DNA from: a phage
Sequence record: PZ445487.1
DNA length: 64,000 nucleotides
Direction: 5' to 3' (one strand)
Part shown: one piece after another, positions 1,367-38,585 of the stretch
Layout: every line of letters starts with the position of its first letter
Numbering within the stretch: the first letter of the stretch is position 1
Notes under the pieces: generated by a model
The model's database searches: none
What the model saw: the letters and a program-made list of their open reading frames with translations, nothing else
Told to the model about the DNA's origin: nothing
Position numbers and translations under genes: made by a program

Positions 1367-1662
1367 TAAAATATTCCTCTTAAAGAATCATTTATCCTGC
1401 GCAATTCGTTTTCCACTTTTATCTTCATATTTTTATCGTCGTTCACGAAAATCATTTTATCTAAATCTTCGCCATTAATCTTTGTATAAAAATAAATGTC
1501 ATGCTCAAAGAAAATCGTTTTTCCAACAGAACGCATGGCAAAGAACGTTGCGATAGTTCTTGGTAAAGGTTTGAATTTAATGGCATTGAAACGCAAAGCC
1601 TGATAGAGAGGTTTTAATGTTCCTAAGCGAATACAATGCTGGATAATTTCTTGCTCTTTCAT
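1366..1662 (-). CDS. hypothetical protein (98 aa)
   Basis: ORF track; same strand and tightly packed with neighbours; start overlaps upstream stop. Confidence 0.45.
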   Translation of the reverse strand: MKEQEIIQHCIRLGTLKPLYQALRFNAIKFKPLPRTIATFFAMRSVGKTIFFEHDIYFYTKINGEDLDKMIFVNDDKNMKIKVENELRRINDSLRGIF

Positions 1663-4177: not shown

Positions 4178-4591
4178 TCAATAGAGGTCTTCGGAAAAGA
4201 GTTTTTTGAAAGGAGTGTTCTTCAAACGGACCTGATTAGTTTGTCCGGCTTCACGGGCGACCACAGCGGCCTCTTCACGGGACATCCATTGCCCATAGTT
4301 ATCAATAAACCCTTGTTCACGAGTGTGGGTGGTTTCGATAATACCTGCTTCCTTCAATCGTTTGAGTTGCGTGTTCATCAATTTGTCGTGATGTCGGGCG
4401 CTTACAACGATCACATCACCATATTTGTTGGCAGCAGCCACAACACGCCGATCAAACTTGGTTGGGTCAGGTATATCACGAGCATACAAGGCGATGTGAG
4501 TGTCGTCCACGTCCCCTTTCACTTCAGAGTATAATTGACACCCATTAGGAGATCCAGTAGGCAAAGAACGAAAATATCCAAGTAATTTCAT
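4178..4591 (-). CDS. hypothetical protein (137 aa)
   Basis: ORF track; same strand as flanking genes; no motif recognised. Confidence 0.45.
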   Translation of the reverse strand: MKLLGYFRSLPTGSPNGCQLYSEVKGDVDDTHIALYARDIPDPTKFDRRVVAAANKYGDVIVVSARHHDKLMNTQLKRLKEAGIIETTHTREQGFIDNYGQWMSREEAAVVAREAGQTNQVRLKNTPFKKLFSEDLY

Positions 4592-14255: not shown

Positions 14256-16997
14256 TTATGCCCCGAGAATACGTTTTGAAATAGCCTTCACAAATCTAGT
14301 GGCATCTTCAATCGCGTTGTGTGCCGAAGGCTGATATGTTGACATCATGAATTTCACCAAACGATGACATTCAACTCGGTATCGGTTTTTGGCCTTTTGC
14401 TTTTGAGATATAGTGCTAGTGACCTTTATCTCATCAAATCCTTCAGCAGTTAATTTTTCATTCAATAAATCAACAACTTGAGTTAACTGGTTACAGGCGC
14501 GGAAAAATCTCGTAGTTGAGAAAGGCATTTCTATATGATAATGTAATTCCTCAACAGCCTTGCGGAAATAACCGTACCCCGATCCAGACGGATTTCGTTT
14601 GGCCAGCATACGAACAATCTTCCATTCTTCTTCAGTGATTTGTTGTTTCGCATAACTGATGATTGCTTTTGCCCTGTGTTGATGATGGGCATAGCCATCC
14701 GTAACTTTTCCATGGGAATCAATCAACAGCTTGGCACCATAATCAATGCGATGAGACATGATGTTTATGCCCTTGCGAAGTTTCAGGAGTTTCTTAGATT
14801 CAAGCGCCTGAAATTCATCTTTATAATGCTCAAGCAACATATCAAACACTGCGTCAATGGGGATGAATACTTCTGGGAATTTCTTCATCATCGGAACAGA
14901 TTTACGACGCGCAAGAACGATTGTTGGATGTGCTCCCAGCAAATCAAACAGGTTTTCGTTTCCATTCTCGCCGAACTTCGTTCTTTCCATCGCTTCACGC
15001 AAATGTCCAGCCGCGGATTGTCGTAAGGTATTACCATGAATTTTATGGATACCTTCTCGGCCAGATACTTCGATATATACGATCTTTTTGCCCGAATCAA
15101 TAATATCTGAAACGGTTTTTCCATCTAATTCATAAACGCGGTCGAAGTTAAATGAATTGTAATGGAAACTAAACATCCCAGGATCTTTTTCAACGGTCGG
15201 GCGAACATATTCCATTTCATGCATGAAATAGACTTCATCCGGATTGAATAAATCGCCAAAGACCTCGATCAGTTTATCGGCAAAGACCAGGTAGTCCGGC
15301 GTTGTTTCTTGTACACCGATCCATGATTCAAAATAAGACTTCAATTCCTCATGGTTGGTAAATGATTCTTTATGTGCCGCCAGCTGATTCCGATTACTGA
15401 AATAATTTTCATTCGGTTTGACGACGATAACGACATTGAAGTTATTGCGTGCTGTTTGTATCTTCAGGTTTCGAGCACGATTCGAGTTATCAATAATAAC
15501 AGCAATTTTTGATTTAGATTTCAACCAATTTCCGACAGAGTTCACATAAATGCTGTCGTGTACTACACCGTTGTCGTGTACTTCAATTTCGTAAGGACTA
15601 CCAATAGACCGGAAAGGTGCATCCAAAGAGTAATCGCGCACGACGTCCGGCGCTCCGATATAACGGAACGTGCCTTTGTAGAAACGGTTATCTGCAGGAA
15701 ATTCCCGTTCGACCAATTTACGGAAACCACTACCGAACATATCAGTCAGCTGAGTCTTTTTCATATACAACATAAGAGGACCCATAGATTCGGCCTGGCG
15801 AAGTTCATACATCTTCGCCTGCATAATATTGTCAGCCACATGCTTGAACACGCGGTTCAGGCTTTCACGGGTGAACTCGTCATATGACAAGTCTTCACGT
15901 GATGGAGGAACATTCAATTCTCCAAGTTCGAAGAAGGTATAGGAACTCGGGAATTTTTCCAGCACGGTGCATATTTCAGAGTCCAATTGGTCGAGATCTA
16001 TCGGGTAAGAAACCCCGCCCATGACAGCATAGTGGATGTTGTCGGAATCTAACTTCGGTTGGATATATGTGTTGCCTACACGGTTTTCGAAGTTGATGTC
16101 AGACCAACGGAAAGAATAACTGGCGTTTTCAACCTTCGGTCGCATTGAAGGTCGCATCACTCGACCCAAACGGACCAACTCTTGTTCAAAGGCGGTAAAA
16201 CGCTGATTCTTTACAGGAACTTTAACAGTCAGGCCGTTGAACTCATCAGTGTCCTCCGGTTTAGGATCACGGGTATCTAAATCCTTGGTAATGAGATCCA
16301 CAGTTGGGATTCTGTCCGCATTCAGATACATCAGGAAACGATACAGTTTCCCTTCATAGCGACTTTCTACTGTAAATGAATCAGATACAGCAAATGGGGA
16401 TTTAGAACCTAGCCCAAACGCCCCTATTTGCCCGTCGTCGTCCTCTTTTGTACTATGGAAGAGTGTTGTATACAAACCAGGTCCACGAATGATCTCGCCA
16501 TCCTCAGCGCGGAATACCAGTACCCCATTATAATAACCAGGTGTACCAATAACAGCAGTGCTATCAGGGATTTCGTCTTCCTTCACGACGATATTACCTT
16601 CAACCAGCACTTCATCTTCACGCGCTGTAATAGGCTCGCCGATGATCATTTCTAATGGAAGACCAACCCCATAATCTTTAATTTCCAGCCAGGGTTCCAT
16701 AACATCCGGTAAATGTACAACAACAGGAGTTCCCTTGGGGGCAAGATGTTTGCTGTATCGTTGAGGCATAGGAGTGAGAGGAGCATAATGCGATGGCATC
16801 CAGCGTTGTTGGCGATCACGCATATTATGTGAGTCTATACCATTACACAACGTCTCACGCAAAGACGCCGCCTCTTTATATTTGTAGAGACTTGAAAATA
16901 ATGTTTCAAATAATTTATCCGTCATCTTGACATTGAATGTCTGTCCGACGATGGTAGAAGAAGAGCGCACGAAATGCTCGGACTTGCGCATTTTCAT
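14256..16997 (-). CDS. rIIA: rIIA-like protein (GHKL-ATPase-type)
   Basis: 913 aa; position immediately upstream of rIIB; ATG 16997 with AGGAA upstream. Confidence 0.8.
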   Translation of the reverse strand: MKMRKSEHFVRSSSTIVGQTFNVKMTDKLFETLFSSLYKYKEAASLRETLCNGIDSHNMRDRQQRWMPSHYAPLTPMPQRYSKHLAPKGTPVVVHLPDVMEPWLEIKDYGVGLPLEMIIGEPITAREDEVLVEGNIVVKEDEIPDSTAVIGTPGYYNGVLVFRAEDGEIIRGPGLYTTLFHSTKEDDDGQIGAFGLGSKSPFAVSDSFTVESRYEGKLYRFLMYLNADRIPTVDLITKDLDTRDPKPEDTDEFNGLTVKVPVKNQRFTAFEQELVRLGRVMRPSMRPKVENASYSFRWSDINFENRVGNTYIQPKLDSDNIHYAVMGGVSYPIDLDQLDSEICTVLEKFPSSYTFFELGELNVPPSREDLSYDEFTRESLNRVFKHVADNIMQAKMYELRQAESMGPLMLYMKKTQLTDMFGSGFRKLVEREFPADNRFYKGTFRYIGAPDVVRDYSLDAPFRSIGSPYEIEVHDNGVVHDSIYVNSVGNWLKSKSKIAVIIDNSNRARNLKIQTARNNFNVVIVVKPNENYFSNRNQLAAHKESFTNHEELKSYFESWIGVQETTPDYLVFADKLIEVFGDLFNPDEVYFMHEMEYVRPTVEKDPGMFSFHYNSFNFDRVYELDGKTVSDIIDSGKKIVYIEVSGREGIHKIHGNTLRQSAAGHLREAMERTKFGENGNENLFDLLGAHPTIVLARRKSVPMMKKFPEVFIPIDAVFDMLLEHYKDEFQALESKKLLKLRKGINIMSHRIDYGAKLLIDSHGKVTDGYAHHQHRAKAIISYAKQQITEEEWKIVRMLAKRNPSGSGYGYFRKAVEELHYHIEMPFSTTRFFRACNQLTQVVDLLNEKLTAEGFDEIKVTSTISQKQKAKNRYRVECHRLVKFMMSTYQPSAHNAIEDATRFVKAISKRILGA

Positions 16998-35756: not shown

Positions 35757-35884
35757 AATAGACCTCCTTTACAAGTCAGATCTATTTATTACAGACAAAA
35801 AGAAACCCGATCATCCTGATCGGGCTATGTTAAACCATCGTGGGGATGGAAAGACTACTCACAGCAATTTCTGATAATGGGCGT

Positions 35885-35913
35885 TGGGAGAGTGCGTCGG
35901 GAATCGAACCCGA
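35885..35913 (-). other. orphan tRNA 3'-module (T-arm tcggg/cccga, 7-nt acceptor strand, no cloverleaf completed)
   Basis: Sense reads ...TCGGG-TTCGATT-CCCGA-CGCACTC-T-CCCA; nearest complementary 5' acceptor strand (GAGTGTG) is about 150 nt upstream at 36034..36040. Confidence 0.3.
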
Positions 35914-36047
35914 AACCGTCAGGACAATGAAAAGCTATTGCATTTCACCTTGCATATCCTCCGGCTTTCTTAACTTCCTTAACCCCAGATTGTTATGAAG
36001 TCGGCATGCACACCTTCTTCATCTTCAGGAAGTCACACTCATTGTTC

Positions 36048-36136
36048 TGGTTGCTTCAACTGGATTCGAACCAGTGACCTCAGGCACCTTGTTCTCTCGA
36101 AACTTTCCTGCGCTCTACCACTCGAGCTATGAAGCA
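36048..36136 (-). tRNA. tRNA-like gene with non-canonical anticodon domain (possible pseudo-tRNA or insertion)
   Basis: Perfect 7-bp acceptor stem (TGCTTCA/TGAAGCA), D-arm GCTC-GAGTGGTA-GAGC, T-arm ACTGG-TTCGAAT-CCAGT and encoded CCA; the anticodon region is a 4-bp stem CAGG/CCTG enclosing 22 nt, and no 5-7-5 anticodon hairpin is found. Confidence 0.4.
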
Positions 36137-36139
36137 ATT

Positions 36140-36228
36140 TGGCGGAAGGTGAAGGATTCGAACCTTCGGGGGCTAAAAGCCCCACTCGATTAGCAGTCGA
36201 GTCCCTTAAACCTCTCGGGCAACCTTCC
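36140..36228 (-). tRNA. tRNA-Ser (anticodon GCU), class II, encoded CCA
   Basis: Hand-folded: acceptor GGAAGGT/ACCTTCC, anticodon arm CTCGA-CTGCTAA-TCGAG, long variable arm TGGGGC-TTTTA-GCCCCC, T-arm GAAGG-TTCGAAT-CCTTC, discriminator G, CCA. Confidence 0.85.
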
Positions 36229-36232
36229 AATT

Positions 36233-36316
36233 TGGAGCGGGAGAACAGGATTCGAACCTGTCCAGTGATCGTCGCCGATGATCAGTCGGCTACTGGCCAA
36301 CCCCTATGGCTCCCGC
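36233..36316 (-). tRNA. tRNA-Ile-like (anticodon GAU), atypical (12-nt variable region, one-nt bulge before acceptor 3' strand)
   Basis: Acceptor GCGGGAG/CTCCCGC (7 bp), anticodon arm GCCGA-CTGATCA-TCGGC (perfect), T-arm ACAGG-TTCGAAT-CCTGT, CCA encoded; D-stem has one A.A mismatch. Confidence 0.45.
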
Positions 36317-36319
36317 GAA

Positions 36320-36930
36320 ATTAGGACGGGCTTCACACCCGATTGTGCATTTGATCTGCCGTAGCCCAACTCCCCGCGCTTATCAGCGCCGATTGGTTAA
36401 CTGGCACCAGTGCCTTCTGGTTCGATCTCCTGGAACTTTACAGGCTTCGCGCCCGACCATTTCTGGAAGTTGGGGCATCGTTTTCGATGTGGAGTCACCC
36501 CATTTTATACACAGCTGGCTGCAACGCTTACTGTGTTTGGTCTACCACCACGTGCTGGGCCACGCTTGAGGACATCGGCCATCCTTCCTCAGCTAATCCA
36601 CGCAGTGATAGATTTGTATCAGAGTGTCCGGTGTAGCTTTCCGTGAGGTGCGCACTACTGTAGCCTCTACACTCTGAATTTGGTGGGCGTTACTTTCGTC
36701 GGGTTCAGATTCCGTTCGGCTATTGGACGTCGCTCGAGAGAACTTGTCGTTCGCGTACTTCGTGCTTACTTGCTTTCGTTTCACACCCATTGTTTGTCGT
36801 CGGGCGGGGGATTCAAACCCCAATCTTTAGTTTGCGTTTCTTCAAAGCTATCATATGTTCACTTTGAATACTAGACTCCCCTGGACATCAAAACAGGATC
36901 TCTATTCCATCCTGCAAGACCCGACATAAT
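36320..36930 (-). other. GC-rich ORF-poor spacer between tRNA genes with a T-arm-like motif (ggggattcaaacccc at 36806..36820)
   Basis: No convincing ORF; only a low-complexity 76-aa frame; candidate stable RNA. Confidence 0.3.
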
Positions 36931-36932
36931 CC

Positions 36933-37008: not shown

Positions 37009-37182
37009 TCTATTCTTACTTTCGTAAACATTCTTTATTCTGCATGAAGACCCAGGGCAGGATCATAACGATCGTAAGTTTTTGGATGAGACCCGTTCTT
37101 GATGCTCACCATCCGACCTTCCCAACTAGCGCGAATTCTGTTGGAAATTACCACCCAAATATTCTTCATAATATAGAACCCT

Positions 37183-37941: not shown

Positions 37942-38132
37942 GGACTGTCAACCTTTTATCCCGTTTGTGCATGATCAGTTCATGCAGGCCTCTTTGTGCG
38001 CCTCACGGCAACGCGCTTCTGTAGGTCATTGACTTGCACCGTAGTCTCACCACAGGCGTTTATTTTTCCAGGGCTTTCCACTTACAAGTCTTAACCAGAT
38101 CGGGATACGGGCTTGTAAGATCAGATTGGACA

Positions 38133-38210
38133 CAACTTTGATGGCTCTAGGACTAAAGATCCCGCGTCACCCATAGACTTGGTTTATAAAATCTAGAGCC
38201 ATCAAAGTTG
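38133..38210. repeat. perfect 18-bp inverted repeat (caactttgatggctctag / ctagagccatcaaagttg) enclosing 42 nt
   Basis: Seen directly; arms at 38133..38150 and 38193..38210. Confidence 0.7.
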
Positions 38211-38585
38211 CAACCAATGTCGCAACTCGCACTTCAGCGTCTTCGTCTCGCTTCAGCACTTGTCCTCTACGCTCGGACCAAACGAGGCTGGCCGACAGAA
38301 ACATGACACCACTCATCACTAGAGCGAGGATGTGGTTGATAGCCACGATGCTATATCTCTGTCGCAGAGTGATCACACTTGTCAGGATGATCACTGTTTT
38401 GCGAACTTGAAAATACTGCGCCTGTCTCGGGTTTCCCCTTAGTTCGGCCTCTCATTGTTCGTCTAGTCAGGGAGCTACCCTTGATGACCAGCTTATTTTG
38501 AGATCTTCGCCAGCACCCACTAGTGTCTAGAATATGTAGGTGTCGAGGTCTGCAAGGCATTGCCCTATTTCATACAACGCTCTCT

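Follow-up and report, generated by a model that had tools for sequence, protein, structure and literature searches.

Phage tRNA clusters are usually read as a supply of codons and, lately, as a source of replacement tRNAs that counter host defences. tRNA-like domains are also known in non-coding RNAs, including tmRNA, YrlA and viral tRNA-like structures. One relevant system is artificial. In the engineered tRNA scaffold of Ponchon and Dardel a cargo RNA takes the place of the anticodon stem-loop, and tRNA processing and the compact fold give a stable RNA (PMC7961669, PMC3753655). That scaffold is a laboratory design, whereas the phage gene described here, in which the anticodon stem-loop is likewise replaced, appears to be a natural counterpart known from its sequence.

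The natural RNAs that resemble this gene do so in part. YrlA/Y RNAs and tmRNA also put D-, T- and acceptor-like elements to a non-decoding purpose (PMC4201824). In YrlA, however, the ends of the RNA lie on the 'anticodon' side, in the Ro-binding stem, and the acceptor is closed (PMC4201824), whereas the phage gene has a normal acceptor that ends with CCA. Identity with a YrlA/Y RNA was rejected on this opposite topology, together with the lack of an Rfam match at E values up to 10. Identity with tmRNA, which combines a tRNA-Ala-like domain with a tag reading frame, was also rejected: ARAGORN finds no tmRNA in the window (the whole stretch of 64,000 nt that was analysed, sequence record PZ445487.1), and Rfam gives no match.

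Phage tRNAs that act against tRNA-targeting defences provide another comparison. Examples are the anticodon-loop variants of T5-like phages (PMC10264068), a phage tRNA-Lys that counters PARIS (PMC11464382) and a phage tRNA-Tyr that counters retron Eco7 (PMC11555353). Like the gene considered here, they belong to tRNA clusters and have an anticodon region unlike that of the host; in these tRNAs the interaction takes place at the anticodon end. However, they still decode and have 7-nt loops. In the gene considered here the anticodon is absent altogether. No earlier description seems to exist of a natural phage tRNA gene in which the anticodon arm has given way to a portable module that another RNA family also carries; a literature search by sequence strings and keywords returned no description of a module-bearing tRNA-shaped RNA or of the kissing-hairpin RNA that carries the same module.

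The tRNA body and its locus

The window comes from Salmonella phage SS3, a Kuttervirus of the Ackermannviridae, and is 100% identical to MK972698. Its tRNA cluster is highly variable among Kutterviruses. One promoter-like site and one terminator were found (Table 1), and the cluster therefore looks like a single transcription unit of about 1.7 kb. ARAGORN calls four tRNAs in the window. The gene at 36048-36136 is not among them, and an Rfam search of the whole window with default filters misses it as well. A 3.5-kb search with permissive filters recovers it (E = 1.2e-8). The Rfam tRNA model RF00005 then matches 36051-36136 on the minus strand over its full length (model positions 1-71), scoring 48.7 bits against a gathering score of 29. 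Read from 36136 to 36048, the gene is UGCUUCA-UA-GCUC-GAGUGGUA-GAGC-G-CAGG-AAAGUUUCGAGAGAACAAGGUG-CCUG-AGGUC-ACUGG-UUCGAAU-CCAGU-UGAAGCA-A-CCA. All arms are paired in the model alignment, and 22 nt are skipped where the model expects 9. An earlier note on this DNA had described the acceptor, D and T arms as intact and had proposed covariance-model scoring as a check; the full-length match scores above the threshold.

Table 1. Coordinates of the tRNA-shaped gene, its parts and neighbours in the window, and of example scaffolds in other sequences.
Feature	Position	Strand	Remarks
tRNA-shaped gene, 89 nt including ACCA	36048..36136	-	5' end 36136, 3' end 36048; Rfam tRNA model, MFE cloverleaf
Acceptor stem, 5' strand UGCUUCA	36130..36136	-	pairs with 36052-36058
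D arm GCUC-GAGUGGUA-GAGC, with G18 G19	36112..36127	-	Rfam model alignment
30-nt module CAGG/AAA/G-U-UUC/GAGA/GAA-C/AAGGUG/CCUG	36081..36110	-	replaces anticodon arm
GNRA tetraloop, GAGA in SS3, closing 3-bp UUC/GAA helix	36095..36098	-	MFE fold
Internal loop, 3' strand AAGGUG	36085..36090	-	conserved across variants
T arm ACUGG-UUCGAAU-CCAGU	36059..36075	-	Rfam model alignment
Acceptor stem, 3' strand UGAAGCA, with discriminator A and CCA	36048..36058	-	
tRNA-Ser(GCU), directly upstream of the tRNA-shaped gene, same cluster (context only)	36140..36228	-	ARAGORN; Rfam 56 bits
Terminator-like hairpin closing the RNA gene cluster	35804..35826	-	
Promoter-like site upstream of tRNA-Met	37539-37510	-	
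Scaffold example, L030	11690-11810		
Scaffold example, L191 (HK620)	1501-1621		
Scaffold example, L190 (phage P1)	2501-2645		
Scaffold example, L192 (Klebsiella phage Magnus)	2001-2244		
Scaffold example, L013	4020-4135	-	

The body has the features of a decoding tRNA: a 7-bp acceptor stem, a D arm with G18 and G19, a T arm with a UUCRA loop and an above-threshold score. In 11 distinct tRNA bodies that carry the module, standard pairs fill 264 of 264 pair cells. Five of the seven acceptor pairs are changed on both sides among these carriers, with 100% of cells paired; the stems seen are UGCUUCA/UGAAGCA and, in the pSb-1 group, GCCCACU/AGUGGGU and once GUCCACU/AGUGGAU. The D stem and the T stem are invariant in all 11, and the D loop is variable. 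Position 14 of that loop is a G in SS3, not an A. The encoded CCA, taken as canonical in the earlier note, is present in SS3 but is not conserved: many Kutterviruses have UCA instead (the site reads AUCA), and the pSb-1 and EP_H11 versions lack it. The SS3-type D loop without A14 and the many copies without CCA could be signs of relaxed constraint.

It is the anticodon arm that is missing. Its position is occupied by a 4-bp stem (CAGG/CCUG) around 22 nt, seen earlier in the letters and now also in the MFE fold, which is a cloverleaf that includes this stem and, inside it, a UUC-GAGA-GAA hairpin. The earlier note had found no 5-7-5 hairpin in the 35 nt that separate D arm and variable loop, and indeed no 17-nt window among them forms even four of five stem pairs. 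An alternative fold with a normal anticodon arm, which the earlier note had named as evidence that would count against it, was found neither in the MFE fold nor by enumerating deletions. The combination of 5-bp stem, 7-nt loop, U33, anticodon and purine 37 that marks a decoding tRNA is absent. The gene also has neither a G3:U70 pair nor a long variable arm. IleRS identity depends on the anticodon (PMC9976931), and there is no anticodon in this gene. It cannot decode. That the gene is tRNA-shaped and lacks an anticodon arm is an observation well beyond chance. Depositors leave it unlabelled or call it tRNA-OTHER, tRNA-Pro or tRNA-Leu, some annotators give Asn, and the protein-coding potential of the site amounts to short ORFs that overlap tRNA genes.

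A clue to the origin of the gene is found at the same locus in sister phages. Right after tRNA-Ser, vB_SenM-AKM_ssTn, Mooltan, ECML-4, PS5 and others have a 76-nt tRNA-Ile(GAU) that matches the SS3 gene in acceptor stem, D stem, variable loop, T arm, discriminator and flanks. Only the D loop and the arm set the two alleles apart: tRNA-Ile(GAU) has the 17-nt arm UUCCC-CUGAUAA-GGGAG, whereas the SS3 gene has the 30-nt module, a different D loop and no anticodon. The two arms share no sequence. This excludes an insertion of roughly 15 nt into the anticodon loop, an option raised in the earlier note, because the whole 17-nt arm has been replaced. Comparison of the two alleles shows exchange of the entire anticodon arm of a tRNA-Ile gene as the origin. 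The module allele (+13 nt) is present in about 140 database phages and tRNA-Ile(GAU) in about 40, although Kuttervirus genomes are 95-99% alike and conservation within the genus says little. In the suggested comparison with the CBA120 and Vi01 loci, both type phages have the module allele at 100% identity. The D and T arms are nearly identical in all carriers, so recombination within them would allow the replacement arm to spread among tRNA genes.

What if the extra nucleotides were simply removed? An intron or other removable insertion, matured to leave a decoding tRNA, would fit an arm that is 13 nt above the normal length. It would also fit the call of 'tRNA-???' that ARAGORN makes on an Agtrevirus copy and the Pro, Leu and Asn labels given by some annotators. 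However, of all contiguous 13-nt deletions that leave a 17-nt arm, none yields more than four stem pairs and none leaves U33, so that no such excision restores an anticodon arm. Thirteen nucleotides are far too few for a group I intron, the bacterial kind, and to our knowledge bacteria have no bulge-helix-bulge splicing endonuclease, which serves archaea and eukaryotes. The arm also has no sequence in common with the Ile arm that it replaced, and the same 30 nt are present in an RNA that is not a tRNA (see below). An intron-containing tRNA is essentially excluded.

Several neighbours in the cluster are unusual in their own right. ARAGORN reports an 84-nt 'tRNA-Ile(GAU)' with a long variable region at 36233-36316 (minus strand); Rfam scores it below threshold, at 23 bits as tRNA-Sec, position 37 would be a C, and it is no orthologue of the tRNA-Tyr located nearby in other Kutterviruses. 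The interval 36317-36932 is without any annotated gene. It includes a non-coding stretch of about 190 nt (36320-36520, minus strand) that is common to phage EP_H11 (L009 1620-1800), with about 82% identity over a 72-nt core, and the EP_H11 counterpart lies about 100 nt from the module-bearing tRNA-like gene of that phage. A 44-codon ORF is annotated in SS3 at about 37035-37169 (minus strand), and the homologous 135 nt are annotated 'tRNA-OTHER' in phages kage and rabagast. Further away, a long near-perfect inverted repeat at 38116-38231 (CAACUUUGAUGGCUCUAG ... CUAGAGCCAUCAAAGUUG) adjoins an annotated HNH homing endonuclease gene and is the source of spurious matches to microRNA families on both strands.

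There is also a second tRNA-shaped RNA that is not a tRNA. It is 156 nt long and lies directly downstream of the first (35885-36040, minus strand), where it is unannotated or labelled hypothetical protein. Its acceptor stem has 7 bp (GAGUGUG/CGCACUC), its T arm is UCGGG-UUCGAUU-CCCGA, its 3' end is UCCCA, and two long arms stand where the D and anticodon arms would be; the fold z is -2.9. The RNA is conserved in Kuttervirus, Agtrevirus and Taipeivirus (72-100% identity), with compensatory changes in 13 of 43 predicted pairs. A further candidate at 36790-36926 (minus strand) combines an acceptor-like GUCGGGU/GCCCGAC, a T-arm-like GGGG-UUUGAAU-CCCC, a 7-bp hairpin in the D position and an expanded interior, but its fold z is only -1.3. 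Since the RNA at 35885-36040 covaries in three genera of the Ackermannviridae, the use of tRNA-like scaffolds for other RNAs looks like a habit of this locus.

The 30-nt module and its carriers

Within the module, a 4-bp stem leads through an asymmetric, purine-rich internal loop to a helix of 3-4 bp, which has a bulged pyrimidine and is capped by a tetraloop. The consensus is CAGG-ARA-G-Y-UUC-GNRA-GAA-C-AAGGUG-YCUG; in an alignment of 12 variants, 24 of 32 positions do not vary. Among the unpaired nucleotides, AAGGUG and the AAA at 36104-36106 are conserved best. AAGGUG is unchanged in 11 of the 12 variants, the exception being AAGGUA in L073. The tetraloop is GAGA, GAAA, GGAA or GGGA, which is GNRA every time, and the pair beside the internal loop is G-C or G-U. 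Loop variation that stays within GNRA, together with a near-invariant internal loop, indicates selection for structure plus specific sequence. The inner helix varies too little to give covariation support. At one stage the internal loop and the tetraloop seemed to covary (A/G), but this vanished once more variants were included.

Module copies with a tRNA body are spread over at least five phage lineages (11 distinct sequences). They occur in Agtrevirus (pSal-SNUABM-02 and two IMG/VR genomes), in N4-like Schitoviridae (Klebsiella phage VLCpiP4b, Shigella phage pSb-1 and two metagenomic contigs of 72-73 kb), in the T5-like 111-kb Escherichia phage EP_H11 and in one short metagenomic contig. The identifiable hosts of module carriers are all Enterobacteriaceae. 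A covariance model searched against 1.5 Mb of related loci for diverged copies gave chance matches only (one inside a coding region), and the module pattern has no match in the GTDB species-representative genomes. The sharing of the module could reflect recent horizontal transfer instead of long purifying selection, because the module varies little and the covariance model found no diverged copies.

Could the module be a copy of a known RNA element? Mimicry of a 16S, 23S or 5S rRNA segment was rejected, as local alignment to the rRNAs of E. coli gives top scores of 16-28, while shuffled queries have means of about 21 and maxima of 26-32. The sarcin-ricin loop has a C-GAGA-G tip, a bulged-G motif (AGUA/GAA) and an invariant GAGA loop. 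The module has a plain Watson-Crick UUC/GAA helix under a loop that is also GAAA, GGAA and GGGA, and this candidate was rejected too. The K-turn, the 11-nt tetraloop receptor and SRP domain IV were compared by eye and set aside; their consensus nucleotides are not matched, and Rfam gives no SRP match. Apart from tRNA, no Rfam family matches the gene at E values up to 10.

The kissing-hairpin scaffold of temperate phages

When IMG/VR was searched with the module core, the matches comprised tRNA-bodied copies and about 45 contigs of temperate phages. In these contigs and in HK620 the module is 87-97% identical over 33 nt (window 36081-36113), and everything surrounding it differs. Here it is an arm of another RNA, likewise four-armed and about 105 nt long. 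This scaffold runs closing stem P1, GAAU, hairpin GCGCA-GGCUGA-UGCGC, module, UAUACAA, hairpin GCCGG-AGAUCAGCA-CCGGC, C, P1, and its conserved core is GAAUGCGCAGGCUGAUGCGC ... GCCGGAGAUCAGCACCGGCC.

Searches with either hairpin gave 116 distinct scaffolds, with 87 different inserts in the first scan alone. The inserts measure from 26 to at least 178 nt (26-162 nt in the first scan). Only one of the 87, the module, matches the window; the other 86 have no match there. Pairs 2-7 of P1 are formed in 113-116 of the 116 scaffolds, with four to six pair types each, figures that call for caution because the search itself demanded at least six of seven pairs. Both hairpin stems covary, the first as GAGCA/UGCUC, GCGUA/UACGC and GCGAA/UUCGC and the second as GCCAG/CUGGC, GUCGG/CCGAC and GCAGG/CCUGC. 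Within the loops, the segments GCUGA and UCAGC could pair with each other in 112-116 of 116 scaffolds, which suggests that the two loops kiss much as the D and T loops meet at the elbow of a tRNA.

The kissing-hairpin RNA of HK620 and phage P1 bears comparison with the tRNA-shaped gene. It too is four-armed with a putative loop-loop contact analogous to the D/T elbow, and in HK620 the 30-nt module is the arm between its two hairpins. Unlike the tRNA-shaped gene, it lacks CCA and the sequence features of a tRNA. Neither scaffold hairpin is present in the window, even with up to three mismatches allowed. The tRNA-shaped gene is thus no member of the kissing-hairpin frame, and the insert alone is shared.

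The scaffold has a wide distribution. Among the matches listed, more than 120 species-representative genomes contain an exact copy of the 20-mer from the first hairpin; they belong to Alpha-, Beta- and Gammaproteobacteria, with a few from other groups, and the copies lie in prophage-like regions. The 20-mer is also present in phage P1, just after trnA-trnT, and in the Klebsiella Ackermannviridae phage Magnus. A tRNA gene lies within 600 nt of 12 of 103 scaffolds, on the same strand every time. Rfam 15 has no family for the scaffold RNA at E values up to 10. The HK022 put RNA is a known RNA-only antiterminator; it was rejected as the identity of the scaffold, having two stems and no closing helix. 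A scaffold of kissing hairpins with interchangeable inserts may be a new, widely distributed RNA family. Its insert arm accepts more than 80 unrelated inserts and so might be peripheral and neutral in function.

The location of the scaffold raises the possibility that the module works in cis. The module-bearing form is found in 108 of 5426 complete E. coli genomes. It generally lies between the Q antiterminator and holin genes, as in strain HS; in HK620 (16080-16200) it lies between the annotated pR'/qut and the late terminator, and in L013 between a Q-like gene and holin-lysozyme-Rz. In another group its place is between a nutL-like boxA/boxB and an ORF whose arginine-rich motif resembles that of N. 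A loosely defined boxA-like sequence of the GCUCUU type precedes 25 of 103 scaffolds. These untranslated leaders, the boxA-like sequences and the placement of the window gene inside the unit of about 1.7 kb, with its one promoter-like site and one terminator, would suit a cis-acting element of a polycistronic tRNA/ncRNA transcript. It might, for example, admit an RNase, assist folding or signal anti-termination, and the tRNA body would be incidental. However, such an element would have no need to take the exact place of the anticodon arm in an otherwise complete tRNA. Moreover, the conserved parts of the scaffold are the two hairpins, not the insert, and these hairpins are what the window lacks. 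The precedent of the put RNA does not help, given its different two-stem architecture. A cis-acting role is improbable.

Other elements accompany some scaffolds. In the prophage of L013 a hammerhead-like sequence is located upstream of the scaffold (4307-4368, minus strand; Rfam Hammerhead_3, 30.5 bits, below threshold), and some inserts (L079, L104) have hammerhead-like CUGAUGA cores, that of L079 being the full CUGAUGA-GGCC-AUAA-GGCC-GAAAC. Many scaffolds (L064 3190-3310, L036, L192 1890-2015) have a long stem just upstream, CACAAC-A-GG-U-AAGAGCA ... UGCUCUU-U-CC-GUUGUG, which encloses a T-arm-like hairpin (GGUUCGAUUCC). The 3' strand of this stem is boxA-like (GCUCUUU) and overlaps the closing stem of the scaffold. 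In L064 a sigma-70-like promoter stands ahead of a conserved non-coding block of about 400 nt.

What the gene may be

Is the gene merely dead? This is the main rival explanation. A single illegitimate recombination would have destroyed the anticodon arm of tRNA-Ile, leaving a neutral pseudo-tRNA that persists through kinship and transfer of the cluster. Decoding is impossible, and the Ile function is dispensable, given that two alleles exist at the locus. The loss of A14 from the SS3-type D loop and the unconserved CCA are what a decaying gene might show. Conservation within the genus is uninformative, the cluster is highly variable, and annotators have called the gene tRNA-OTHER, Pro, Leu or nothing. 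Nevertheless, none of the four stems of the body is broken in any of 11 distinct copies, which come from at least five phage lineages, and compensatory replacements have occurred in the acceptor stem. Furthermore, the replacement arm is a structured module, conserved on an unrelated scaffold and with a loop held to GNRA, and it is the majority allele, found in type phages. A neutral pseudogene is on these grounds rather unlikely.

The earlier note had left three options open, the loop insertion already dismissed, a pseudo-tRNA and a tRNA-shaped RNA with another role. The second was right in that the gene cannot decode. Simple decay fits poorly, because the arm is conserved in three unrelated contexts, its loop stays GNRA and the acceptor changes are compensatory. 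The third fits best, with the role itself putative. At the level of sequence three points are established: the arm was exchanged, the module is conserved on two scaffolds that are unrelated, and the tRNA body has been maintained. The gene is probably a small functional RNA, neither a working nor merely a broken tRNA. The reading preferred here, with a probability of about 0.5, is that it is a non-decoding small RNA on a tRNA scaffold, an allele of tRNA-Ile(GAU) that displays a portable 30-nt binding module.

How might such an RNA work? With a tRNA body, the RNA would be released from the polycistronic transcript of the cluster through RNase P and trimming of the 3' end. The body would also provide a stable, L-shaped RNA, with the module held at the tip in place of the anticodon. 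The module would then be the active part, most likely a sequence-specific binding site acting in trans, which might bind or titrate a protein or RNA of Enterobacteriaceae cells or of their phages. That any GNRA loop is accepted while the internal loop is fixed suggests such a binding site and not a base-pairing seed. All identifiable carrier hosts are Enterobacteriaceae and the covariance-model search of 1.5 Mb of related loci gave no diverged copies, so the partner may be specific to this group. The favoured candidate is a factor that inspects the anticodon end of tRNAs, for instance a tRNA-targeting defence nuclease, for which the module RNA would be a decoy. This guess is made by analogy, because phage tRNA clusters counter tRNA-targeting defences (PMC10264068, PMC11464382, PMC11555353). 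A broader proposal, which is tentative and open to doubt, is that phages own cassette-like RNA 'cargos' on L-shaped scaffolds (the tRNA body and the kissing-hairpin RNA), and that the module has moved between both and acts in trans.

If the preferred reading is right, the tRNA fold carrying an unrelated RNA module would be a third use for genes of phage tRNA clusters. The gene is present in well-studied and applied phages, including Vi01, CBA120 and many biocontrol phages of Salmonella and E. coli O157. Tracing its module has also exposed a widespread, strongly covarying phage RNA, found in the late leader of HK620 and beside the tRNAs of phage P1. Both RNAs are small and easy to delete, which makes their function directly testable.
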